A DNA stretch of 64,000 nucleotides from Eledone cirrhosa. Taxonomy: Eukaryota. A program made the position numbers and the translations under genes. The stretch lies in NCBI GenBank assembly GCA_964016885.1, contig OZ024742.1, forward strand, positions 320,974,001 through 321,038,000, written 5' to 3'. This document shows, piece by piece, positions 30,476-62,357 of the stretch (position 1 is its first letter; the number at the start of each line of letters is the position of its first letter). The notes beneath the pieces are model-generated. The model saw nothing but the letters and a program-made list of their open reading frames with translations. It did no database searches and had not been told where the DNA came from.

Positions 30476-33400
30476 CTATAGTCTGATGTAGAGTGAAGGC
30501 CCATTCACACGGGCAATTCTCGCCACTTTCACCCATCTTTCATAAAAACGGCTGGGGTGCAGCACCTCTCTCTCCATCCTGATCCTTCTTCCGAAATGAT
30601 ATCGGAAGAAACGGACCAGTTGTTGGCCAGAGGGAAAGGTGTCTGACCTCAGTCCTTTCAGACGCGTCCACCATACAACCTCTTTCGCCATGGCTATTAC
30701 GCACAGAAACACCGCCTCTTCTTCGTTTTTGAAGAGGGGAGGGGGCTTGATCGTTACAATAGACTCGGTGGTCAACCGGATCGGTCCCACCCTTGACAGC
30801 AGTTGTTCGACATAGCCCCACAGATCGGCAATGCCCGAGCAGTGTACCAATGCGTGTGCAATGGTTTCCTCGTCGCACACGCATCTGGAACATATCTTTT
30901 TCGAGGGGTCCCTACCCGGGCGCCCATGTCTGTAGAGCCTTTCTCGAACGGGCAGAGCCCTTCTGTAGCATTGCCAGGCCAGGGACCTCTGGAAGTTATC
31001 CATGGGTCCCGGGCTGAATGTCCTACCGAACAGGTTTGCCAGTTCGTCTTCCTCCATGCCTAGGGCTTCTCCGAGGGCGTCGTCGCACCTGCTAATCACC
31101 AGCCCTCTATAGAATGACGAGGTGGATTCTCCACTGACAGCCGGGTCCGCCTGCTAGAGAGCCGTAAGCGCCTGGGCACACTCGGTGTGCCAGGCGCCCA
31201 GTTTTCTCGGTCTTTGCTTGACCCAGGATTGCAGCTCGGTGAGTGAGACGAGTCTGGGAAAGGCTCGCCTCACAAACGGGGCCCACGCCGGTTGACCGGA
31301 GAGGAATACCTGAAGGTGCCGTAGCCTTAATGCGTGTTTACGTATCATTAGCCACGGCATCCCCAGCCCTCCTTTCGAAGGGTGTTGACAGCAGATGGGT
31401 CTCCTCACCATAGGAGCCCGCTTATTCCAAAGGAATTGGAAGGGTGCGCGCTCCATTTTGGCGAGCGTTTCCCTTGGGCAAGGCACAACGGTCAGGCGGT
31501 AGTAGATGACGGACGCTATATAAGTGTTCGCCACCTCCGCCCGACCTTTCAGGGACAGTTTACACTCGGCCCACTTCTGGGTCAGTGCAAACACCCTGTT
31601 CGTTACCTCACCCCAGTTCTTCTCCACCTGGAGGTCTGGTCCGAACCAGACCCCGAGCAACTTCACCGGGCCCTCCGTCCAGCGCCCGACGACGCCATCG
31701 GAGGGCATCGATCTGCCCCTCCACGTGCCGAGTTGCTGACCGATCGACTTGTCCCGGTTCAGCTTAGCCCCTGTAAACCTTTCGTACTCCTCCAGTAAGG
31801 TGCCGATCGCCCCGATTTCCGAGGCCGTCGACACCATTACTGTTACGTCATCGGCGTAGGCTGACACCGCTTTCCGCAATCCCGGTTCCAACGGGATGCC
31901 CTGCAACAACTCCAACTTCCGCAGCAGTGGCTCTAGAGTCATTACATACAGAAGGGAGGAGAGAGGGCACCCCTGTCGGATGGACCGCGCGATTTCGAAC
32001 GGCTCCGAGAGGTAGCCGTTCACCTTGACCATAGAGCAGATGCGGCTGCTGTGCATGGCATTGATCCAGCCCCTGAAAACGGGTCCGAAGCCTGCCGTCG
32101 CTAGCACCGCATCCAGGTAACCATGGTCGACCCTATCGAATGCCTTAGATTGATCCAAGTTGATCAGGGCCCCAACCCTCTCTATGATGTATCGCATGAG
32201 GTGGAGGTTGTCGTGGATGGACCTGGACGGGATAGCACATGTCTGCGCATCTCCCACCAGGTTTCCCACGACAAGCGCCAACCTCTTTGCTAGCACCTTG
32301 GCCAAAATCTGTAACTCTGTATTTAGCAGAGTTATGGGCCTGAAATTATTTATATCGTCCCCCTTGTTCTCGTCCTTCCTCACTAGCGTGACTACGCCCT
32401 TGGTCACAGCACAGGGAATTCTCCCGTTATGTTGCCAGTTGCAGTAGACCGCCTCGAGGAGATCGGGGAACAAGTCCGGCATAGCTAGATATAGTTCGTA
32501 TGGAAGACCATCGAGACCCGGGTATTTGCGCTTGCCGCATTGGCTCAGCACGTCCTCTATCTCAGCGGCTGAAATCGGCTCCTCGCAGGACTTCGCCTCC
32601 CTGTCCGAGAGACGGACCAGTTGTTGGCCAGAGGCCCCCCGCCCCTTCCGAACAATCCGGCAAAGTGCTTTTGAAAAGCCTCGCACATCTGCTTAGGTTC
32701 AAGGATCACCCGTCCATCCTGATCTCGCAAAGACCGGATAGTGGATCTGCTCCCTCTTTTGGCTTCTGTCACGCGGGCTGAGCTAACAGCTTTGGTCCCC
32801 TCGTTTCTCAGAGCACGTATTTTGCTTCGGACGATGCAGCCTTCGTGTTTCGCGTCGAAGAACTGGCCCAGGGCCGTTCTCGACGCTAGCACTCTGGCCA
32901 CGTCGCCGCTTCTAATTGCCTCTTCTACACTATCTACCAACTCCCTTTCCTTCCTATTTCTATTTGAGGCTAACTCCTTACTAAATTCTATAGAGACTAC
33001 TCTAATCTCTCTTTTGAGAGATCCCCACCACCTGCTGTTGACGATGGCGCCCGTCAACCGCTCCTTAACTAAAGTGCTAATCCGGTCCCTCTAAGCCTTA
33101 CTTGCCGGTAAGGACAAGTTGAGCTTCCAGTAACCGGGTCACTGTCTATGAGTTCTGTCAAGGTTGACCATGCAGGTCACTAACTTGTGGTCTGAATAGT
33201 CAACCATGAACATTTTTGGACAACTTAAAAGTCCTTATCCTTAATTCTAACTAAGAACCTATCTAGGTACGACCTAGATGATCCGCTACGATTTGCCCAA
33301 GTCCAGGTTGGCGCCGTCGGAAAATCTAGTCGATATCTATCGACCAGGTCAAATCGACCAATTAACCCTTTGAGGCCATTACACCCCTCTCTATCGGGAC

Positions 33401-33866
33401 AGGCCCCTACGTAGTCCCAGCGTGCATCTAGGATACCATTCCAGTCCCCCACTAATAGCAAGGAGCGGGACGTCCGTAGAAAAGTCTCCAGACGATGGAA
33501 GAAGTCCGGCCGCATTGACCCGAAAGGGCCGTAGGCGGCTACTAACCTAAACGCTCCGCCTTTACCACTGCCAAGTTCCAGAACCACTAGTCGACCCTCC
33601 GGGTCCAAATGTACCATCTGTGTTGCGAGACCCAGATGTTTTTGCAGCAGAACGACAACTCCACCCCCACCTCCGGGCTGACAGAGAGATGCGTGCATCT
33701 CAAAGTCATCAAAGGTGGGGGCCAGCTGTCGCACGTTGCTGATCCGGGCCTCGCAAATAACCATCACATCTATACGTTGTGACCTGAGGTCATTTAGAAG
33801 CATTGCTTGCTTCCAAGTTGAGCCCAGGCCACGCGCATTTAAACAGCCTACTCTTAGCATAGCCAT
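30476..33866 (-). pseudogene. ORF2 of Tx1 copy 1 (APE endonuclease, RT, C-terminal zinc finger), broken into four pieces
   Basis: GDWN, PGLDG, QGCPLS, AYADD, CSRC..ETIAH...HC; lesions at about 33225, 33092, 32620 and 31154; 21-bp in-frame deletion relative to copy 2. Confidence 0.92.
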
Positions 33867-34068
33867 GTTGGTGGTGAAGAGAAAAGGCACTTACCTCTCT
33901 GCGTCCCGGGTATCGGGCTGCACAATTTCCATTAGGGTGGGGGATGGGTTGATGGGTGGGGTGGTGGTTTGTGGAAGTGTAGGGGCATCAGTGTGTTGTG
34001 TGGTTGGGGAGTTTGGAGTTGTGTGGGTGTTTGGGGAGGGGGTGGGGTAGTTTTTTAGGAGGACGCGG

Positions 34069-35709
34069 TTAATGGGCCCGACGCAGGGGGATGGGGGGGG
34101 GCACGTCCTCTTTAAAATTGTTTTTTAAAGTTTTATAGGTGTCCTGTGGGGCCTTAATCATTTTGAGGTGGGGGAAATCCCCTGCCTGGGTGAAGTTAGG
34201 CCCTTGTGTTTTTATTAGATTGTTGTTGTACACAATGTTTAACAGTTTTTTGTTTCTTGTGTTTATGTATGTGTATGCATGTTTTTGTTTTTGTGTGGTG
34301 TTTTTTGTTTGCTGTTGTTGTGAGCTCTTTTGTGTTGGTGTCAGTGTTATGTTTTGGGGAGGGGTTGTTTTCATTTGTGTGTCTGAGGTGTGTTTTCTTT
34401 TTTTTCTTTTGATTGTGTGGAAGTGCTCCTCCTCGTCTGACGACGAACTAGGGTCATCTTCCGCGTTGGAGAGGAGGGGTAGATTTTCGGGTTGTGTTTG
34501 CGGTGCGGGTGTTTTGGAAATTGTTTTTGTTTTTTGAGTGGAGGGGATGGGTTGGACATTGTTTGGTTTTGGTTTGAGCTGTGGTGGTTGTTTTTGTAGT
34601 GGTAGTTGTGGTGATTGTGTTGGTTGTGCAGTTGTTGGTGGTGTAGGCAGGATTGGGGTTTTCTTATTAAGTTGGGGACAGACAGCCCTCAGGTGACCTC
34701 TGGTTCCGCAGAGGTAACACGAGGGCCACCTACCCTCAACGGTAATGTTGATGAAAGTTAGATCATCCAGTATGACGCGTTCAGGGATCTGGGCGATCCT
34801 TTCGGGCCTCATTTGAACTACAAGTTCGAGGCTCGTTCCACTGAACGCGTCACCCGATGCCTTTCCCATGGACACCAGCATGTCATCATCCAGGTCCAGG
34901 AAACCTGTCAAAACCCACCATATGTCCATAATCGGCAGGATGGTGTGGATTTTTATTTTTTGTGTTCTTCTACCCATGTACGTAGGGTAGAAGGTGTATG
35001 CGGTGGATGTGATTGGTTTGATGGACAGTTTCACTGCTGTGTCCCTGTCCTTCATGAGAATGGATAAACTCCCGTAGAGTCTATCCTTCTGAATGAAGGT
35101 GATGTCCTTCATGACGTCTTTTAAAACCAGCTCTATCTCACTCTGTGATGGTTGAGCTGGTTTTTTGCTTTTATTCAAGATTGTCCTAAACATGACAGTG
35201 TTTAGGAGTCTCTGGCTTTTTAGTTCCGGGGGGGGGGGGGGGGGATGGATCGTGAATGAACCATTTTCCCCGTACACTACATATTTTTTGGCATCTGCCA
35301 GTAGCTCCTTCGCTTTGGTTATATCTACTGGCAGATAGTCGAGGGTTTTCCTTGCCGTCTCGGCGAAGGAGAAATTTTTTTTGTTTGTGTTGCTGTTATA
35401 GTTGGTGGTGTTGTTGTTATCATTGTTGTTGTTGTCACAGTTATTGGTCTTGTTGTTGTTGTTATTGTTATTGGTGTTGTTTTCGTCCGTCGCATTGTTG
35501 GTGTTGTTGCTGTTGCTGGTGCCGCTGGTTCTTTGGGTTGTTGCCATGGCAACGTCAAGTTGTCGGTTAACAGGTGGAGAAAATCCTTCCTCTGGCTGAC
35601 CTTTCTTTTTGACCTCTGCTACTGTGACAGTGGCAGGGGGAAACTGTAAGCTTATCTTCCCCTTTCCTCCTTCGAATTTTGGTGAAGATGCTTCAGCCAT
35701 TTTTATCAA
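34069..35709 (-). CDS. ORF1 (gag-like, single CCHC zinc knuckle) of Tx1 copy 1; true stop probably at 33891 after a homopolymer frameshift at about 34090
   Basis: CYLCGTRGHLRAVC; homologous to the 39711-41627 ORF; another frame continues NRVLLK...MEIVQPDTRDAER. Confidence 0.85.
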   Translation of the reverse strand: MIKMAEASSPKFEGGKGKISLQFPPATVTVAEVKKKGQPEEGFSPPVNRQLDVAMATTQRTSGTSNSNNTNNATDENNTNNNNNNNKTNNCDNNNNDNNNTTNYNSNTNKKNFSFAETARKTLDYLPVDITKAKELLADAKKYVVYGENGSFTIHPPPPPPELKSQRLLNTVMFRTILNKSKKPAQPSQSEIELVLKDVMKDITFIQKDRLYGSLSILMKDRDTAVKLSIKPITSTAYTFYPTYMGRRTQKIKIHTILPIMDIWWVLTGFLDLDDDMLVSMGKASGDAFSGTSLELVVQMRPERIAQIPERVILDDLTFINITVEGRWPSCYLCGTRGHLRAVCPQLNKKTPILPTPPTTAQPTQSPQLPLQKQPPQLKPKPNNVQPIPSTQKTKTISKTPAPQTQPENLPLLSNAEDDPSSSSDEEEHFHTIKRKKRKHTSDTQMKTTPPQNITLTPTQKSSQQQQTKNTTQKQKHAYTYINTRNKKLLNIVYNNNLIKTQGPNFTQAGDFPHLKMIKAPQDTYKTLKNNFKEDVPPPIPLRRAH

Positions 35710-35912
35710 AATAGGATTTTTCGAAATATTAAATGTTTACAACACTATTTCGCCTAAAGGCGTAGAATATTTTGAGAGACTGACCAGATCAAAATTTGAC
35801 CTGGTAGTCCCTCTACAAAATGGTACAAAAATGAAAGTTTACAGTTCACAATTTCCAGTTAAATTTAAACGAAACTTACCGAGCGAGCTCAGCACATGTG
35901 TCCATCGTAAAG

Positions 35913-36001
<89 letters not shown>
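35913..36001. repeat. (GATA)n between the two Tx1 copies
   Basis: pure repeat. Confidence 0.97.
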
Positions 36002-36239
36002 TATTTCTTTATTAGCCACAGGGGCACAAAAGAAGGGGACAAATACAAAGGGGGAAGTTTACATACAATAAAAACGTGTAAAATGTTATCACAGATGGAA
36101 TTTAAAAGTTAGTCGATTTTCCCCAATAGAGGGAGACAGTTTATATGGGTAACACATACCCCCGAAAAAATGTGCAACCCTCATCTCCAGGAGTATGAAG
36201 AGCTTGTACTCCTTTCCTCTCCTCCTCCTTTTCCTCAAT

Positions 36240-39200
36240 CTACAGGCTGATATAGAGAGAAGGCCCATTCACTCGGGCCATTCTCGCCACTTTCACCCAC
36301 CTTTCATAAAACTTGCTGCGGTACAGCACCTCTCTCTCCATCCTGATTCTTCTTCCAAAGTGGTATTTGAAAAAAAGAATCAGTTGTTGGCCGGAGAGAA
36401 AGGTGTCTGACCTCAGCCCTTTCAACCTTGTCCACCATACAACCTCTTTCGCCATAGCTATCACACAAAGGAAAACCGCCTCTCCTTCGTTTTTGAAGGA
36501 GGGTGGCGGTTTGATCATGACAATGGATTCGGTGGTCAACTGGATTGGTCCCACCCGCGACAATAGTCGTTCTACATATCCCCACAGGTCAGTGACGCCC
36601 GGGCAGTGTATGAATGCGTGCGCGACGGTTTCTTCGTCTCGCACGCACCTCGGACAGATCTTTTTTGCAGGGTCCCTGCCCGGGCGCCCATGTCTGTAGA
36701 GCTTGTCTCGAACTGGTAGAGCTCCTCGGTAGCACTGCCAGGCCAGGGACTTTTGGAAGTTGTCCATCGGTCCCGGGCGGAAGGTCCTACCGAACAGACT
36801 GGCCAGTTCATCTTCCTCCACGCCCAGAGTTTCACCGAGCGCGTCGTCGCACTTGCTGCGGACCAACCCTCTATAGAATGACGAAGTGGAGTCTCCACTG
36901 ATCGCCGGGTCCGCCTGCCAGAGGGCTGTGAGCGCCTGAGCACATTCGATGTGCCAGTCGCCCATTTTCCTCGGTCTCTGCTTGACCCAGGACTGCAGCT
37001 CGGTCAGTGAGACGAGTCGTGGGAAGGCTCGCCTCACGAACGGGGCCCACACCGGTTGTCCGGTGAGGAATACGTAGAGATGCCGCAGCCTGAGCGCGTG
37101 TTTGCGCATCGTCAACCACGGCATCCCCAGCCCTCCGTTAGAAGGGTGTTGGCAGCAGATGGATCTTCTTACCAAAGGAGCCCGCCTCTTCCAAAGGAAT
37201 CGGAAGAGGGCGCGCTCCATTTTGGCGAGCGTTTTGGCTGGACAAGGCACGACGGTCAAGCGGTAGTAGATGGCGGACGCTATAAAAGTGTTCGCCACCT
37301 CCGCTCGACCTTTCAAGGATAGTTTGCACTCGGCCCACTTCTGGGTGAGTGCAAACACCTTGGCCGTCACTTCGTTCCAGTTCTTCTCCACCTGGAGGTC
37401 CGGACCAAACCAGACCCCGAGCAGCTTTACCGGTCCTTCCGTCCAGCGTCCGACGACGCCATCGGAAGGCATCGGTCTGCCTCTCCACGATCCGAGTTGC
37501 AAACCGATGGACTTGTCCCGGTTCAGCTTCGCTCCTGTGAGACTTTCGTATTCCTTTAGTAAGGTGCCGACTTTCTCGATTTGCGAGGCGCTCGACACCA
37601 TTACTGTCACGTCGTCGGCGTAGGCCGACGCCGCTTTCCGCAGTCCCGGTTCCAGAGGGATGCCCTGCAATAGCTCCAGCTTCCGCAGTAGTGGCTCGAG
37701 AGTCAGTACGTACAGAAGGGAGGAGAGAGGGCATCCCTGTCGAATGGATCGCGTAATATGGAACGGCTCCGAGAGGTAACCGTTCACCTTGACCCTTGAG
37801 CAGATGTTGCTGTTGTGCATTGCAGCAATCCAGCCCCTGAACACGGGTCCGAAGCCTGCCGCCTCGAGCACCGCATCCAGGTAACGATGGTCAACCCTAT
37901 CGAAAGCCTTAGACTGATCCAAGTTGATCAGGGCCCCACCGAAGCCGGGTTTACACCCTACCCTCTCTATGATGTATCGCATGAGGTGGAGGTTGTCGTG
38001 TATGGACCTGGTCGGGATCGCGCATGTCTGCGCTTCTCCCACCAGGTTCTCGACGACAAGCGCCAGCCTCTTTGCCAACACCTTGGCCAAAATCTGTAAC
38101 TCTGTGTTTAGCAGAGTTATGGGCCGGAAGTTGCCTATGTCATCCCCCTTATTCTCGTCCTTCCTGATTAGTGTGACCACGCCCCCGGTTACAGAACTGG
38201 GAATTCTCCCGTTCTGTTGCCAGTTGCAGTAGACCGCTTCCAGGAGACCGGAGAATAAGTCCGGCATTGCTACGTAAAATTCGTAGGGTAGACCGTCGAG
38301 ACCTGGAGATTTGCGTTTGCCGCATTGGCTCAGCGCGTCCCCTATCTCAGTGGCTGAAATCGGCTTTTCGCAGAACTTCGCCCCGCTGTCCGAGAGTCGC
38401 GGTAGGCCGTCGAGGTATGGACCGAAATCCATAGCCTCTCCCGGCGCGCCGCTCCCCCCGAACAGCCGAGCAAAGTGCCGCTGAAAAGCCGCACACATCT
38501 GCTTCGGCTCACGTATCACGCGTCCGTTTTGGTCCTTCAAAGACCGAATCGTGGACTTGTTGCCACTTTTTGCCTCCGTCACTCGGGCCCAGCTAACAGC
38601 TTTGGCTCCCTCGTTTCCCAGAGCACGTATTTTGCTTCTGACAACGCAGCCCTCGTGCTTTGCGTCGAAGAACTGGTCCAAGGCCGTTCTCGTTGCTAGC
38701 ACGCTGGCTACGTTGCCACTTCTAATAGCCTCTTCTACTTTATCTACCAGTTCCTTCTCGGTTCTATTTCTATCTAACGCTAATTCTTTACTAAAAACTA
38801 TCGAGTCTAATCTAACTGCCCTCTTGAGAGAGTACCACCATCTGTTGTTGACAATGGCCCCTGTCAAGTGCTGTTTAACTAAAGTGCTAATCCGTCTACT
38901 GTAGGCTTTGCTTGTCGGTAACGACAAGTTCAGCTTCCAGTAGCCGGGTCCTTGTCTATGGGTTCTATCAAGGTTGGCCATGCAGGTCACTAGTTTGTGA
39001 TCCGAATAGGCAACCATGAACATTTGTGGACAGCTTAACATGTCCCTATCCTTATTTCTAACTAGAACCCTATCTAGGTACGATCTAGATGTTCCGCTAC
39101 GATTACTCCACGTCCACAGTGGCGCAGTCGGAAAATCTAGTCGATATCTATCGGCCAGGTCAAATCGGTCGATTAACTGTTTGAGGCTGTTACACCCCCC

Positions 39201-49412: not shown

Positions 49413-52400
49413 ATGTTCTTCTGGTTTTATAATTTCACAAAGTTTTACCAATAGAGAGAAAGTCGGTTTCTAACATAGACACAAGACTCTCTCATTGGAA
49501 TTTACACAACATCAACCAACTAGGTAGATATGTATATATGCATGTGTAGATATGGATGTTATTGTATGTGTGGATGTGTATGTTTTGAGTTGTATGTGTG
49601 CATGTGTATATGCTTTGTATCTGTACATGTGTATATGCAGTTATTAGATGTAAAATTTTTGGAATGTTTTACATATTTTTACTGTTCCATTAATGGATTG
49701 TACTTGTAATTGCCTAACTAGTTGTGTTCTTTCTGTTCCTGTGAAGCCTAGCTTCTCAAGATTTGTATTGAGGCAGTTACTGACATATCCCAGTGCCCCA
49801 ATAATCAGAGGTATAAATCTGAAGGTGTAATCAGGGTCGAGTATCTGCAGATTTCTCATCAGTTCTGCATAAATATTCTCCTTTTCACTAATCTTTGATA
49901 TTATATTGGCATCTGATGGGCAGCTAATTTCCACTACTGTGCATGTTTTCTTCTCCTTGTCCCATATCATAATATCTGGTCTGTTATGCCTGCATTTCAT
50001 TGGGGTTTTTACTGGAACATTCCACCAGTACTCTTTCATATTATGTACATGGATGTCTTCCACATTGTTGTAGCTTTTAATGTGTTTATTATCGGGGCTA
50101 TCTTTTTTACGAACTGCATCGTACAGTGTTTTAGCCACTACATCATGCCTCATAGGTAGATAGTACCGCGATGACATCTTTGGACAGCTGCTGATGACAT
50201 GGGTGATATCCTCGATGTTAGTTCTGCAGAGTCTGCACTTGTTATCACATCTAGGTGTTTTGCCTGCATCCCTATCTCTTTTGTGAATCAGGTATTTCGT
50301 GCTAATCTCCTCTTCTTGGATTGCAAAAGCGTATCCTTCAAAGTGGGAGCCAATATAGCGGTTGTTGGTCCAAGATAGACTACTTTCCTTATCTATATTA
50401 CTCTCACTCTGGAGCTTCCTGGCAACATATCCATGCATGATTTTTTGCTGATAGGCATGCAGTTTTTCATCCATGGATTCACTGCGATACTGCTGAGCGA
50501 CATCCCTGGGTGTGAGTTTTTGATTATCACACAGGGAATGTCTCTCAAGGAGTTCCCTCCCAACTCTCATGATCTTATCTGTTTCATGCAGATTGATTTG
50601 CTCGAGAAACGGGCTCCTACGTTTTGAGGTTCGTAGATGTTGTCGGAGAGATATGATGCGACATTCAAATGTTGTCTGGACTGATGTTAGGCCTCTGCCT
50701 CCCTGCTTACGTTTCAAGTAAAGGCGGTCTATGTCACTGTTGATGTGGAAATTTCCGGTGTTGTTCAGTATTTTTCGAGTTCCAACATCAACTGCTCGGA
50801 TTTCGTCTATCGTCCAATTGAGTATTTCAAACGTTGGTGTTAGGACAGGCACAGCAAACACATTGTGAGCCACTGTTTTGTTTTGCGCAGAGAGTTCCGA
50901 TGACCAGATCTTTCTTAATCGGGTGTAGTATTCCCTGGTTACACGTTCTTTATTACAGATACCATTATAGGATATGTTCTCATCTATCCCCAGGTATCTG
51001 TAGGAGTCCTCATCAGATATCGGTGAAACAGTTAGGCCATTGATGACGATGTTGCTAGATTGGGTTGTTGTTTTCCCCCACTTTACAGTCATGTATGAGC
51101 ATTTATCTTGGCCAAACTCCATTCCTATATCCTTTGAGAACGTTGTAACCAGGTCAAGATTTTTCTTCATCCCATCCATGTTCTTGGCATAGAGTTTCAG
51201 ATCGTCCACAAATAAATTATGGGTTAGGTTTGTATTTCTGTCCTCCTGTGAGCCAATGATGTATCCCTCACATTTCTTGAGCAGAAAGGACAAGGGGTTT
51301 AATGACAAGATGAATAATATCACAGAGAGACTGTCCCCCTGAAATATACCCCCTGCAATATTTTATTTTATCAGTGAAAATAGAGGCCCCCCCCCCCACA
51401 CACACACACTCTATCTTTAACCTTAGGATAGTAGCCCAAGAAGAAGACAGCCTCTCTATGGCTCTGACAATAATGTCTGGGACTTTAGCAAGTTGGAGGG
51501 CCTCTATCATCCAAGAGTGGGGAACAGAATCGAAAGCTTTCCTGTAGTCCAGCCAGACTGTAGTCATATTCCTCCTAAGTTGTCGCACCTCCGACATCGC
51601 AGTTTTGTTGATTAGGAGTTGTTCAGCACATCCCCAAACCCCTTTCTTTCCAGCTGCTTGTTCATCTGTGATGATGTTATTATTTTCACAGTGATCTTGG
51701 AGGAATAGTTTCAGGCAGGCTGTATACATCTTATACATCAGGTTCTGGCATGCAATAGGTCGGTAGTTTTTTGCCAAGTGGGTGTCTTTGTTCTTGGGGA
51801 CCAGTAACGTTTGTGCTAATGTCAACCATTCTGGTATAAGTGTATCTCCCTTAAGAACTTGTTGGTAGAGGTCAGTAAGATACCTCCGATAGAATATTAG
51901 TTTTTTGTACCAGTAGCCGACAATCATGTCTCTTCCTGGTATCTTCTTATCTTGGAGTTTTTCTATCACAGTCTCAAGGGTACCCTCACTTATTTCGTAT
52001 GTTTTTGTTGTAGTGTAGTAGCAATAGTTATTTCGGATTTCTCTTAGCCACACTGCATCTTGGTTGAAATTCTTCTTTTCACCCCATATTTTTCTCCAAA
52101 AGGAATCTATGTCTTTCTGGGATGGGGCCTCAGTGACACTTATTATTTTCCCCTTCATATCTCTATAGACTAATGTATGGTTTCGTCTGAATCTTTTATT
52201 AAGCACTTTTCTCTCATCTACCTTCTTCAGGTATCGGCGCTTTTCGCTAACAGCTCTCAATTCTTGTTTGAGGGTGATCAGCTTATATTGGAGAGTTCTG
52301 GTTCTACTGTTACCAAACATCGTCTCTATTTTATTTTTCACTTTTTTTTGGTGAGGAGTGAGGTTTTTTGTGTTTGTTTGCATGTAAGGTGCATTGTCAC

Positions 52401-53514
52401 ATATCCTATGTTTTTTCGTAGGTCAACACTCTTTTTTTCTATTTTAGTTATATATGATGGTATTTTTGGTGGTGTTTTGTTCTTGTTCTCTGCTATCACC
52501 AAGATAATGCTTCACTGTCGTTGATATGGCATATAAACAGGCGTTGATTTGCCAAAATGTTGGGGTTTTTATCCGTCGTAAATATGTATCCTCTATTTCG
52601 TCAATAACACGTAGTATTTCATTATTTGGTTTTTTATTCACCATTGCCGTTTTAACACGTTCAGCAAGAGAGATATTTATACATGAGTTAATTTCTCTCT
52701 GGAAGATTTCGTTGAGGGAAATGTTCAATTGTTTATACTTTTGATTATCATTATCGATAGTATTTTCCACAACAGTCGAGGTAGACGCGGATGGTACACG
52801 TGGTGTCACATTTATTCGATTATTATTATTATCGATAGTGTTTTCCCCAGCATTCGAGATAGACTTAGATGGTACAAGTGGTGTCAAGTTTCTTACAGGC
52901 ATAGTTGTTTCAAGGCGCTGTTCTACCTGGCTGCTAGGAAGTCTAGTAGCATGGCGACCTGTAGCACGTGTTGTTGATAACATGTTTGTTGTTGGGGACT
53001 TACAATTAATAATATTTATCTTATTTTTAGGTTCAACAAACGTCGCTTGTTGGCGTAATTGTTTCGCTGTGAAATAATTTAGCTCTGGGTGCATTTCGTC
53101 CCAGTGTAGCTTCATTCTATTCATATAACCAATAGAGGGATTGCTTTTTGCCATTTTATAACAATTAAATAAATCATTATTAAGTTCGCAACTCCAAGAG
53201 AAATGCGATTTATAATTTCAGTTTCTTCTGTAGCTACAACTGAATAAAGTTTGATTACCTTCCTTGTTATCTGTCTTCGATATTTCCTTAATTGTTTTGT
53301 TGATGTTGTGTTCAGCCATGCTGTTTTTAGTAAATCCTTGTAAAATGAATTATGTAATTAGTCGGATATCTCTGCGAATTCGAATAAAAGGTGTCTTCAG
53401 AAGGGATAGTTAGAAGAATAACCAGTAGTTGTGACATTACTGTCGGAGATAGTATTCATCTTAAATTTAATAAATAGTCTCCCACGCCAAAATATGCGAC
53501 TGATCGCGTTGACT
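49413..53514 (-). mobile_element. Near full-length R4/Dong-clade RLE non-LTR retrotransposon in (CATA)n
   Basis: single broken ORF flanked by UTRs; the same tetranucleotide on both sides. Confidence 0.85.
49644..53319 (-). pseudogene. ORF with Myb-like N-terminus, RT, CCHC and PD-(D/E)xK endonuclease; at least three lesions
   Basis: GYMNRMKLHW...P...QLRQQ; NYRPIAC, LDYRKAFDSVPH, LFVDDLKLY, YRYLGI, GGRGL; CRLC..EDITHVISSC, RHD, RPDI, VEISCP. Confidence 0.88.
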
Positions 53515-54287: not shown

Positions 54288-54369
54288 AATCCACCGCCAT
54301 GTCACGTGACATAATAATGGTTTCTTATATAAGAAACCATTATTATGTCACGTGACATGGCGGTGGATT
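54288..54369. repeat. Perfect 82-bp spacerless palindrome at a SINE 5' junction
   Basis: 41-nt arms checked base by base. Confidence 0.92.
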
Positions 54370-57619: not shown

Positions 57620-58145
57620 TTATTTTTTTTGAGTTTATGTTGGTTGTATACCAACACCTCAATATGCAGGATAGAGCACTCGACGAAGTGCGCAGGTTGG
57701 TTTGGTTACTCCGGAGTAATGTAAAATAAAGTTAAATAAAAAGTCAAATGTTTAAAATTTAGCTTCGTTTATTACTGCTATATATATTTCAGTGACAGCC
57801 ATCTTTGGCTGTGACCTCTTCAGGCAGTTTAAATTAGTATGGTATAGACAAGTACATATGTTGTGAAGGTGTATAATATTGTCAATACTCTGATATGCCC
57901 AGTTCCTGGTTGGGTTGTTGTTTCACTGATTCCAGTTCCTCAGTGAAATAACAACCCAACCAGGAACTGGGCATATCAGAGTATTGACAATATTATACAC
58001 CTCAACAACATATGTACTTGTCTATACCATACTAATTCAAACTGCCTGAAGAGGTCACAGCCAAAGATGGCTGTCACTGAAATATATATAGCAGTAATAA
58101 ACGAAGCTAAATTTTAAACATTTGACTTTTTATTTAACTTTATTT

Positions 58146-58147
<2 letters not shown>
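57620..58147. mobile_element. Tail plus fold-back palindrome (57722-57929 / 57940-58147); Penelope-like inverted pseudo-LTR
   Basis: about 208-bp arms, 10-nt spacer, hammerhead, (TA)n flanks. Confidence 0.78.
58041..58095 (+). ncRNA. Type I hammerhead ribozyme motif (mirror copy on the minus strand at about 57774-57828)
   Basis: ACTGC-CTGAAGA-GGTcACAGCCA aaga TGGCTGTcACT-GAAA-TATATA-TA-GCAGT. Confidence 0.82.
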
Positions 58148-58182
<35 letters not shown>

Positions 58183-58187
<5 letters not shown>

Positions 58188-58692
58188 TATTAAAACAATG
58201 AAATTAAACACAAAACTGTTAATTCATAGTAAAACACATTATTTTACGATCGTTTCTGGGGGGTAGTCGTCTGCATGTTCATTTAATTATTGATCTATGT
58301 AAAACATATTACAAAATATCAATAATTAAAAGAATACATACGTCTTCACTACCCGCCGTCTTTCTGAAGACGGCGGGTAGTGAAGATGTATGTATTCTTT
58401 TCTCACTATGATATTTTGTAATATGTTTTACATAGATCAATAATTAAATGAACATGCAGACGACTACCCCCCAGAAACGACCGTAAAATAATGTGTTTTT
58501 CTATGAATTAACAGTTTTGTGTTTAATTTCATTGTTTTAATATTTCTATTTTGACTCTGTATCCAATTGAATTATATCGTTGATAAAAAAATGTTTGTAT
58601 TTTAAACTTTGCTTCACGACATCTTCTACATACGGATTACATTGAGTTCTTTATACGGTTTAGACCCTACCGTTGAGTGGTAGATTTATCTG
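58183..58692. mobile_element. Fold-back palindrome (58183-58362 / 58367-58547) plus tail
   Basis: about 180-bp arms, 4-nt apex tctg; tail contains GTTGAGTGGT. Confidence 0.75.
58361..58488 (+). ncRNA. Hammerhead motif with an about 100-nt stem II; core lies at the palindrome apex
   Basis: TTT-CTGAAGA-(c)GGcGGGTAGT...ACTACCCcCC(a)-GAAA-CGACCG(CGATCG in the other arm)-TA-AAA. Confidence 0.55.
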
Positions 58693-58712: not shown

Positions 58713-61460
58713 TGAAAAGATTCAGGATCCCTGAAACAATTGTTAATACAGTAAATAAAACCCTTTTTGTACTGTTGACCATGTTATTCTTCACTCTTTC
58801 ACTATTATTACTCCAAGATTAACCTGCATAGGAATTCCTGAGAACTCGCCACCTAACTAAGGAAACCTCTTGTTGAGTCAAAAAACCCCGTTCCTCTAAC
58901 TGGATTACCTATAACGATAATTTGTTATCCCATATACCCGGCTCCCACTAAGTTGAGCAACAACCTTAACGCACGGCACTAACATGGAAAGACACCACAT
59001 AGGCATGTCCTTAAAAAACATACCTATACCTACAAATAGGGAATATACACTCGGTACGATACAACGTACTAATGACTTTATCCGTCGAATCCGATGGAAA
59101 GTATATCATTATTATAAAGGACACGCTAATAATAAAAATGAGGAATTTATTAGTGAAAAATACGGGTTCAAATCCTGCAAAAATCCACCGAATAACCCCC
59201 CAACTTGATGCCTTCGAACTCGACCTCATGAACATGATAAACGGAACCAAATTAAAAAAACGGACACATTACAACAAACTGCAAAAGGACATCAATGTAC
59301 TACTAAACAAAACTACATAACACCAACGGTATTATAGTAAAAGCGGACAAAACATGAAACGTATACACCATGAGCCTTAATACATACAATAACTTTATAC
59401 GCCGTGAACTACACAAAAAATACAAGAAAACTACGGAATCTACACTCACTAACATTAATAAGGAAGAACTTAACATAGTAAAAAAACTGAAAATATCTTA
59501 TAGAACCGAGCCTCTGACCCCTTGTAAACCCACATTTAATCTGAAAGATCATAAATATAACTTCGAAACTGACCCTACTATTAAATTAATATGCTCATCG
59601 AAATCGGATATAGGTAGAATTAACAAGAATATACTAGATAGAATAATAGCACAAATTAAAGACAAACTAATAATTAAGCTTTGGGGTAACACTAACGAAG
59701 CAATAGATTGGTTTAGCAAAATAGACAATAAGAAAACATCCGACTTCATACAGTTTGACATAAATGACTACTACTCCTCCATTTCTCCAGTCACCCTAAA
59801 TAAGGCACTAACCTTTGCACAGAAAAACTCGAACCTATCCTCGTGAGGAAATTAGAATAATACTAACTGCTAAGAGAACTATCATTAGGTTCGATAATAG
59901 TTACTGGGAAAGAAAAAACAGACAGAATAGCTTTGATATCACTATGGGATCTAACGACTCAGCTCAAGTAACAGATATAGTTGGAATATATATAGCACAT
60001 ATCTTACATAAGGAATTTAATAACCTCCAAGGAGGAATTTATAGAGACGATACACTCCTTTTAGCTAAAAACTTAAATAATCAAAACTTGGAAAGATTAC
60101 GTAAAAAGATTAGAATATTCTTCAATAAACTAGGCCTAGGAATCACTTTCGAACTTAATTCGAAAAAAGCTAACTTCTTAGATGTATCACTCAACCTAAA
60201 CACAGGACTAATAGAGCCCTTCCATAAAAATAACGAAAATCTAGCATACATTAGTTATAACTCAAATCACCCTCGCTCCATAATTAACTCCATAGCACAT
60301 AGTGCATCCCTTAGAATTTCACGCTTATCTTCTAACCTAGAGATTTGTAATGAACACGCGAACTACTACAACATAGCTTTACTTAAGGCAGGCCACAAGG
60401 AGAGCTCAAATACATACCAGATACAAACAACAAAAACACACCTAACAACAATAACACCACCCACACATATAGAAATAGCAAATATAGGATTAAACATAGA
60501 AATAGGCAACGAGCACCAGAAATAACTGGACCGAATACTAATATAAGGACCCCTAGGAACTATAGAATATCCAGAGATAGGAAATACTTATTGTTCAATC
60601 CAATATTTAACTCCTCTATAAAAACCAAACTACCTTCTACATTCTTTAAACTAATTGATAAGCACTTCCCTAAACTTCACAAATACCATAAAATCTTTAA
60701 TAGAAAAACTATAAAACTGTCTTACTCTACTGCAGCCAACATAGAATCACACATACATAAAATTAACTATAGAAGAATCTCTAATGAAAATAACCTACAA
60801 ACAAACACCATAACACCAAATACAAAACACAAACACATAACAACATCGCAACCACACACACGTCAGAACGCATCACAGCAAAATATCAACAAACCCAAAT
60901 CTCAACCCATACATAACAACATACAAAACCGCATTGAAGAACCGGCACACAGGAAGTCCTCAAAATGTAACTGTTACTTAGCGGATAAGTGCCCACTACA
61001 AAATAGATGCCTGGAGTCAAATATAGTGTACCTGTGTACTATAAATTCTGGCAACTTAGCATGGCACTACATAGGTTCTACGGCTGGGGAGTTCATAAAA
61101 AGATGGTGTGTCCAGATACTCTATAAATAACCGTAGACTAATGAACACAACAACGCTGGCCAATAAAATCTGGCAGCTTAAGAATACAAACCAAGAATAC
61201 GGGATTAGCTGGTCGAAATTGTCGGGGGCAAAGGCCTACAAAAATGGAATGTCCCACTGCGGACTTTGCAATATGGAGTTGCTCCATATTTTAAAGTATG
61301 ACAAAATGCTGCTTAACAGCAAAATAGAACGGTTAATTTTCTGTAGGCATAAAGCAGCTACTAAATTCGCTAATTTCAAACCAACATGATTCGATCCAAC
61401 AATCCCATAATTCAAACTGAACCACTTAGAGTCTATTATAATAACCCATTATTATTAACT
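58713..61460 (+). mobile_element. Decayed Penelope-like retroelement (RT + C-terminal GIY-YIG)
   Basis: starts after (TA)n with a degenerate hammerhead remnant (GAAACAATTGT). Confidence 0.85.
58984..61389 (+). pseudogene. Penelope-like RT/GIY-YIG ORF in six pieces
   Basis: FIQFDINDYYSSI, ITMGSNDSA, IYRDD, FLDVSL, SNHP, CNC...CPL...C..IVY...YIG...R, CGLC..E, LN, CRHK. Confidence 0.88.
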
Positions 61461-61463
61461 GTC

Positions 61464-61900
61464 AATCGACGCACTCGGAGAGGCTCTGGGCGTCGACGAA
61501 GTCGAACTAACCAGTCTGTTCCGGAGGACTTTCAAGCCGGGGACGATGGATAATTTCCCAAAATCCCTCGCTTGGCAGTGCTACCGGGGGCAATTGCCGG
61601 TTCGAGATAAACTCTACAGGGACGGAAGTGCTGTCAGGCGGACCTGCCCGAGATGCGCGCAGAGCGACGGAACCGTTCTGCACGCACTCGCCCAGTGTCC
61701 GTGCATTACTGACTTGTGGAGTTATGTCGAACAGCTGTTGTCGCGTGTAGAACGGATTCGGCTATCGGCCGAGTCCATAGTGAAGATCGACACGCCGCCT
61801 TCTTTTGGCCAGGAAGGGCAAGCAATTTTCCTCTGTCGAGTGGCAGTAGCGAAAGAGGTTGTATGGTGGACGAGGTTGAAAGGACTGAAGACAGACACTA
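61464..61900 (+). pseudogene. Tx1-like ORF2 C-terminal fragment
   Basis: MDNFPKSLAWQCYRGQLPVRDKLY...CPRC...KEVVWWTRLKGL. Confidence 0.9.
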
Positions 61901-62083
61901 ATTGAAAATTAGAATTGGTGCTCTGATACACTATAAATACACTATATATACATTCATATATATATCGCTATTTCAGAGCACCAATTCTAATTTTCAATTA
62001 TCAATTTTTGCTGTACCGGCAACCGCTTTGTATAATCAGTTCTTGATTATTACTGGAATTCTATAAGAATCCAACATTCATAA

Positions 62084-62175
62084 TTTTCAACAAACAAGGG
62101 GAGTGCTAAGCTCTGAGGAATACCAACAGTATGAAACAGAGATCTGTCACCTTATCTCCCTTTGTTTGTTGAAAA
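62084..62175 (+). ncRNA. Type I hammerhead ribozyme with full stem III, GUC triplet and extended bulged stem I
   Basis: ...GGGAG-tgc-TAAGcT-CTGAGGA-ATAC caaca GTAT-GAAA-CAG agat CTG-TC-AcCTTA-t-CTCCC...; outer ttttcaacaaacaa/ttgtttgttgaaaa. Confidence 0.8.
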
Positions 62176-62267
62176 AAGAAGTAAGTGACATAGTCATTAC
62201 TCTAAAACAATAGCGTAAGGTCTTCAAAATGCTTTTAATTAAGCAAACAGTGTATTGCAAAATACAC

Positions 62268-62277
62268 TATATATACA

Positions 62278-62357
<80 letters not shown>
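62268..62357. repeat. (TA)n
   Basis: direct reading. Confidence 0.95.

Follow-up and report, generated by a model that had tools for sequence, protein, structure and literature searches.

The extended type I hammerhead motif at positions 62084-62175 of the 64,000-nt stretch of Eledone cirrhosa DNA analysed here (the window; contig OZ024742.1, positions 320,974,001 to 321,038,000 of the forward strand) is probably one mutated copy of an animal non-LTR retrozyme, a protein-free element of about 318 nt that is likely to have spread as an RNA circle, cut by the hammerhead, re-ligated, and copied into (TA)n DNA by a Penelope-like enzyme. The window copy itself is ordinary damaged transposon debris and a dead end, with one ribozyme and a stem I weakened after insertion. 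The first-pass annotation had called the motif stand-alone, which does not hold, as it sits inside a ~318-nt repeat unit with thousands of relatives. The search for copies and tandem arrangements that it had proposed finds thousands of copies in the genome, mostly dispersed, together with a few dimers and multi-unit loci.

The anatomy first described for 62084-62175 is borne out base by base in core, stems, loops and GUC triplet. Three helices surround a CUGANGA / GAAA / NUH core and stem I is the open one, as in a type I hammerhead. The canonical extended layout is genuine and, as had been claimed, sets the motif apart from the minimal palindromic Penelope-type motifs of the window. Its parts are as follows.

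62084-62103, + strand: 5' strand of the stem I extension, 20 bp (sequence, fold and compensatory changes)
62104-62112, + strand: TGC strand of the internal loop and 5' strand of proximal stem I (sequence and conservation)
62113-62119, + strand: catalytic core C3-U4-G5-A6-N7-G8-A9, here CTGAGGA
62120-62132, + strand: stem II, ATAC/GTAT, 4 bp, with loop CAACA (three of the four pairs covary across subfamilies)
62133-62148, + strand: GAAA (62133-62136), stem III and GUC (stem III nearly invariant in sequence)
62136-62147, + strand: stem III, ACAG/CTGT, 4 bp, with loop AGAT
62148, + strand: C17, 3' of which the cut is predicted (sequence and covariation)
62149-62175, + strand: 3' strand of stem I and its extension (sequence and fold)
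62150, + strand: G-to-C change breaking the second pair of stem I, private to the window copy

Proximal stem I pairs TAAGCT with ACCTTA (62107-62112/62149-62154), the second pair being the C62111.C62150 mismatch, and beyond the TGC/T internal loop there are 20 more pairs (62084-62103/62156-62175), one of them G.U. A strict type I descriptor matches once in the real window and in none of 100 block-wise dinucleotide shuffles, and the fold of 62060-62200 has a z of -4.7. The U at position 62104 and, in loop II, the C..A show 90-100% conservation among relatives, which is compatible with a tertiary contact between loops I and II. Rfam hammerhead families give no match, whether the whole window is scanned at E<=1 or 62040-62220 at E<=10; in two of six relative-bearing loci scanned, HH9 scores 22 bits, below its gathering threshold of 52. 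The missing score counts only against membership of those sequence-specific Rfam families. The Rfam miRNA matches in the window were rejected as microsatellite artefacts.

The relatives carry G at the mismatch position and the C is private, so the C.C mismatch is post-insertion damage. Genome-wide, a 48-nt core with G at this position has 98 exact matches, against two for a 42-nt version with C, and G is present in 29/29 best relatives and in 219 of 224 aligned segments. The second C-bearing copy has none of the other private changes of the window copy in the compared stretch, and its C is independent. The predicted cost of reaching the active fold is 2.0 kcal/mol with G and 7.1 with C, in a calculation of secondary structure only, with no tertiary terms. 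The window copy is predicted to be a poor candidate for cleavage and its intact siblings good ones; with one ribozyme only, it would in any case release no monomer. The earlier designation of the motif as the best candidate for self-cleavage thus survives for the family, where covariation includes the 3-8 pair, and is doubtful for the window copy, with its mismatch and single ribozyme.

The insertion to which the motif belongs extends well beyond it on both sides.

61900-61926, - strand: inverted, 5'-truncated arm of 27 nt with its 3' end outward (head-to-head; layout as in 100 family pairs)
61927-61934, + strand: short filler between the arm and the forward copy, whose start it repeats (sequence)
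61935-62290, + strand: forward copy, 1.1 circularly permuted units
61966-61991, + strand: conserved "tail" between the two family 3' ends (20-mer with 4,544 exact matches)
62260-62290, + strand: terminal redundancy, a repeat of 61935-61965, ending at the shorter family 3' end
62283-62357, unstranded: (TA)n tract at the 3' end, the usual target or terminus of the family

The unit spacing is 325 nt in the window copy as against 316-321 nt in most relatives, and the copy has a private extra stretch of ~7 nt near 61998-62004. On the left, the insertion interrupts an L1-type fragment (zf-RVT), and other copies diverge beyond 61899. The tail at 61966-61991 is likely to be the region where reverse transcriptase (RT) is recruited or starts. 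Contigs from three runs of one sample, of unrecorded kind, have repeat-like depth, G at 62150 and opposite-strand joints.

Family members were sought in the 3.0-Gb assembly; unit positions count from c1, the base that immediately follows the cut. With a 141-nt query there were 1,818 candidates, and the 40 that were scored included full-length matches at 96-100%; a relaxed core pattern had 3,465 genomic matches (control, 0). All 40 sampled tail-motif loci belong to one superfamily, as members or truncated pieces, while a metagenome scan for the tail motif returned 0 matches. The unit (~318 nt; natural monomers 309-321 nt) has no ORF and one type I hammerhead, and so falls in the 150-450-nt non-coding range of retrozymes. 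No LTR was seen in the element, and any target duplications, which in retrozymes exceed 4 bp when present, are obscured by the (TA)n ends.

The copies have fixed 3' ends and variable 5' ends. At 90 loci chosen by the ribozyme they are circularly permuted: their 3' ends coincide, their 5' ends are scattered, and in no case does a copy continue into coding sequence. For a set independent of the ribozyme, a 35-mer lying downstream of the cut was used; it has 307 exact matches, and of the first 100 of these 99 were recovered, all on contigs C1-C2. The 88 3'-most matches of this set fall into a group of 47 with ends at c131-142, one of 32 at c163-173, and 9 with other ends. There are accordingly two fixed 3' ends, ~140 and ~170 nt beyond the cut site, both at (TA)n. 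The nine copies with other 3' ends were left out of the length analysis (n=79). The cut site is crossed by 69 of the 79 copies, three of them twice, and ends do not pile up at it (3 in 696 nt at risk). An apparent 5'-end pile-up just past the cut among ribozyme-chosen loci is gone in this set. Drop-off rises from 3.9 per kb before one unit length to 14.1 after it (p = 6e-8, n=79). A replicate drawn from 40 loci that had been selected by the 3' motif has 26 termini and gave 4.8 and 10.5 per kb, a difference in the same direction that is not significant (p = 0.17); 14 of these termini cross the cut site. At one locus (L229:~2800) two head-to-head arms join exactly at the AGCT after the cut, as from a cleaved linear end; such joints are not in overall excess.

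Among 291 segments, arms are arranged head-to-head in 100 cases and tail-to-tail in 3. Where sites are polymorphic, the two arms of head-to-head pairs agree in allele in 404 of 433 cases, against a chance expectation of 275, and tandem overlaps in 164/176 (102 expected); such agreement is equally expected from a homogeneous tandem master. Mean divergence is 3.0%. For the tail region, identity is 0.85 within and 0.83 between copies, at n=21 only. Of 302 occurrences of the tail motif, 136 run into (TA)n, 103 lead on into the unit, and the remaining 63 have some other sequence next.

The great majority of copies, that of the window included, have one ribozyme per strand. True same-strand dimers, spaced 317-321 nt, number 7 among 280 cores, with no trimer in those loci; the number of two-ribozyme copies rests on sampled loci and is not a genome-wide count. 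Longer copies occur elsewhere: L321 is a ~3-unit copy with an inverted arm, and L320:1980-4300 (G000:C4:169.09 Mb) is a tandem array of ~7 units that are 8-14% apart and have shared derived changes and broken cores. One turn is therefore no hard limit. In the multi-unit copies L321 and L322 the downstream units appear richer in substitutions than single copies. At L261:2780-3410 there are ~3.9 tandem copies of a 163-nt deletion derivative that lacks the ribozyme and ends in (TA)n at a normal family 3' end; it could be either a ribozyme-less mini-circle or a local duplication.

The structural conservation in homologs on which the case for the motif had been made to depend is present: stems and the 3-8 core pair covary across subfamilies. 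U3/A8 replaces C3/G8 in 1,312 of the 3,465 genomic cores, and a hand count of the first 100 core matches listed gave 60 C3/G8, 34 U3/A8 and 6 mismatched. Covariation was scored on 41 rows hand-picked to span subfamilies (21 CG and 20 UA, mismatched cores not picked). At 0.335, the score exceeds that of shuffles (0.211, 0/500) and of slid controls (0.113 at most), and 92% of the cells in this alignment pair, although related rows inflate cell counts. Both-sided changes are found at three of four stem II pairs and six of 13 pairs of the distal stem; stem III hardly varies. Of four measures based on changes, two, which count pairs and types, are not above shuffles. In a tree of 80 of 132 copies, built with the core removed, U3/A8 needs two changes, and a single row on a long branch accounts for the second. 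In the large U3-A8 lineage stem III is palindromic, a form associated with hammerheads that act as dimers. In some subfamilies loop II is 6 nt long, CAAAUA or CAAAAA, which we take to resemble the loop of the Schistosoma mansoni Sm-alpha hammerhead. A divergent subfamily (L238, L252, L223, L246) has a U3/A8 core and a 4-nt loop II, and in some members an A.A mismatch at the base of stem II. In other hammerheads U3-A8 has been described as a covariant that is active (PMC3088659; PMC4209133). That a tertiary catalytic pair was swapped with compensation and the result then amplified suggests that cleavage or ligation probably matters to the element; together with compensation in stems I and II it implies, as we infer from the sequences, selection on catalysis.

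A life cycle that would account for these copies resembles the one proposed for retrozymes (PMC7229834). Transcripts of the rare copies with two ribozymes would be cleaved at their two GUC sites, releasing a monomer, which would be ligated into a circle by RtcB, by analogy with axolotl and mussel retrozymes. A Penelope-like protein with RT and GIY-YIG domains would bind the conserved tail region and cut AT-rich DNA on both strands. Reverse transcription from an internal start would then produce two arms from one RNA variant, and RT would usually drop off within 1-1.6 turns and rarely after 3 or more. The marks described for Penelope-like elements (PLEs) are fixed internal 3' ends, an optional tail of ~30 nt, inverted 5' arms and (TA)n targets (PMC8557442), and the anole PLE protein is reported to cut and extend both strands from two internal starts downstream of the hammerhead (PMC11167929). 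The present family has the same insertion signature, namely 5' truncation, an inverted 5' arm, the optional tail and a microsatellite target, and a Neptune-like PLE of the same genome has a matching pattern of two 3' ends at (TA)n. Mobilization in trans by a PLE protein is inferred from these Penelope-type ends and their recurrence in the genome's own PLE. Read-through of the cut site requires that the template be either ligated or uncut. The circular unit folds with a z of -5.6.

The read-through fits equally well a non-autonomous, Penelope-dependent element that is copied from an uncut, linear tandem RNA, with its ribozyme acting occasionally or late and no circle being needed. Dimers, a ~3-unit copy and a ~7-unit array do exist, uncut tandem RNA is described as the main in vitro template of the anole PLE, with cleavage not needed (PMC11167929), and a competing helix predicted by folding (below) could hold the ribozyme off. 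However, same-strand pairs are just 7 among 280 cores, with no trimer in those loci, and the ~7-unit array, considered as a master locus, was rejected as a source: it is decayed, and one of its shared changes occurs in just 4 of 270 dispersed copies. The repeats are also alike within each subfamily, for which a monomer bottleneck is a simple explanation, and the compensated core swap implies that catalysis matters. We regard the uncut transcript as an unlikely template and the circle as the probable one, given the rarity of dimers, the failure to find a homogeneous array, the internal homogenization of subfamilies and the apparent selection on catalysis.

The unit might instead be the pseudo-LTR of an autonomous PLE, the copies being its 5'-truncated 3' ends. 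The genome is rich in PLE families, the architecture of the copies is that described for truncated PLEs (PMC8557442), and Xenopus retrozymes are reported to be related to PLE pseudo-LTRs (bioRxiv 10.64898/2026.07.22.740005). Against this, copies longer than one unit enter another unit and never coding sequence, and no collinear RT/GIY-YIG frame lies beside any examined copy, which makes such an origin very improbable. A stand-alone ribozyme used by the host at the window locus, for which the nearly intact canonical layout would speak, is largely refuted and retains next to no credibility: the copy is ~2% from a young repeat family, is flanked by other transposon fragments, and has a private change that breaks a stem.

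How a circle would escape its own ribozyme is a question for which folding models offer a candidate. In many copies the models favour an off-pathway helix between the core Y-U-G and the C-A-G of stem III; in the minimum-energy fold of the window copy the core is predicted to pair with the 5' strand of stem III, which is then not formed. In circle models of 27 natural monomers, whose probabilities scatter widely, the mean predicted probability of the competing helix is 0.48 and that of stem III 0.36 in the window's subfamily (n=14), 0.64 and 0.13 in the U3-A8 lineage (n=9), and 0.52 and 0 in a third group (n=4). Loop III is AGCU in 30 of 39 U3-A8 copies, which lengthens the competing helix, and AGAU in 144 of 150 C3-G8 copies. 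According to PMC7229834, animal retrozyme circles must have a block on self-cleavage, and the predicted helix could be that block. A palindromic stem III that serves dimeric action (PMC4209133), a single ancestral event, or the unreliability that nearest-neighbour models are known to have at three-way junctions could explain the pattern equally well. Read jointly with the insertion ends, the copies would be a fossil record of rolling-circle, double-primed reverse transcription by a Penelope-type enzyme of a viroid-sized circle, with synthesis begun at a fixed internal point and ended after roughly one turn, and self-destruction blocked by a switch between core and stem III that was re-tuned (AGAU to AGCU) when C3-G8 gave way to U3-A8. 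This combined picture is tentative and, taken whole, more doubtful than probable. If true, it would supply the missing "off" mechanism of animal retrozyme circles as well as direct evidence for the class of mobilizer.

Judged by its sequence on most of the features tested, the element is a mostly dispersed variant of known animal non-LTR retrozymes, filed as dispersed because only a few loci are tandem. With the retrozymes described from Acropora, Mytilus and axolotl (PMC7229834; Li, Clavereau & Pollet 2026, bioRxiv 10.64898/2026.07.22.740005) it has in common the helix sizes of a canonical type I hammerhead. As in these retrozymes, the unit is AT-rich, non-coding, 150-450 nt long and present in thousands of copies, PLEs co-occur, and the unit folds in silico into a stable circle. 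Unlike the tandem arrays described for those retrozymes, the copies here are mostly dispersed, 5'-truncated and permuted, of 0.3-1.6 units; head-to-head arms, two fixed 3' ends and a large U3-A8 lineage also distinguish the family from the accounts consulted. High proportions of monomers among retrozymes are reported by Li et al. (bioRxiv 10.64898/2026.07.22.740005), and the supplement of PMC7229834 may hold comparable families. No published account of this family or of end-and-arm statistics for animal retrozymes was found in a search that did not extend to most subscription papers or to repeat databases.

The likenesses to PLEs as described in PMC4209133, PMC8557442 and PMC11167929 are 5' truncation, partial tandems and an inverted 5' arm, to which are added the ~30-nt optional tail between two 3' ends and the (TA)n targets (PMC8557442), 3' ends downstream of the hammerhead cut (PMC11167929), and U3-A8, which is reported from the minimal hammerheads of S. 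mansoni PLEs (PMC4209133). However, there is no RT/GIY-YIG ORF between pseudo-LTRs here, as there is in autonomous PLEs, the motif is the full extended one with a 4-bp stem III and not the minimal palindromic PLE type, and the unit has no sequence in common with the PLE families examined in this genome. The Sm-alpha hammerhead has been described as a non-autonomous retrotransposon (PMC6155905), and type I topology, a bulged stem I and a 4-bp stem II are common to both. The present motif differs in its 4-bp stem III, in the 5-nt loop II of the window's subfamily, and in having no match to Rfam Hammerhead_1. The first-pass annotation had likened it to fast monomeric hammerheads of the Sm-alpha type; such action is a possibility, to be set against the competing helix predicted to occupy the core and the palindromic stem III of the U3-A8 lineage.

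Two questions about retrozymes become testable with this family. One is which enzyme mobilizes animal retrozymes and from what template, on which the Penelope signature of the insertion ends and the read-through of the cut site bear. The other is how the ribozyme is silenced in the circle, for which the competing helix is a prediction. In addition, the U3-A8 core, spread to over a thousand copies, provides a natural series of hammerheads for kinetics and for the design of self-circularizing RNA.

A specific helper was sought among the PLEs of the genome. The two intact families examined, a young one encoding 738 aa and a longer one, which we presume to be Hydra-like and Neptune-like from domain order and not from a tree, have their own, different hammerheads and no sequence in common with the unit. 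On the same grounds of a different hammerhead and no common sequence, the degraded PLE at 59000-61390 was, like these two, rejected as the helper. No PLE ORF (RT/GIY-YIG) is continuous with the unit in the 90 loci or in later loci examined, no chimeric head-to-head PLE/retrozyme pair occurs among the examined loci, and downstream of 76 GIY-YIG ends there is no homology to the tail beyond the retrozyme copies themselves. A PDB sequence search with one PLE protein gave a single weak RT match.

The young 738-aa family has many intact copies that are 99-100% identical. Comparison of L299, L300 and L304 with L302 and L059 delimits a PLE family with frames of up to ~1,290 aa and two 3' ends ~60 nt apart, both at (TA)n. 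The degraded PLE of the window (59000-61390, + strand), with RT followed by GIY-YIG, is kin of the young family and separate from the hammerhead element.

Other parts of the window are also rich in repeats. The palindrome-borne minimal hammerheads at 57719-58150 and 48640-48920 are head-to-head inverted arms, and the first 15 core bases of the motif at 57.7-58.1 kb are common to the pseudo-LTR hammerhead of a PLE family in the genome; because of the inverted arms and this core match, the palindrome-borne hammerheads look like truncated PLE ends. More long, near-perfect inverted repeats lie at 54288-54369 and 58183-58547 and are probably head-to-head insertions of other elements. Several LINE copies occupy 30479-41642 and 49644-53217 (- strand), with a 1,150-aa frame for endonuclease, RT and zf-RVT and frameshifted relatives of it. 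At 16400-25800, ~9 kb of an extremely skewed GT-rich simple repeat gives rise to spurious long frames.
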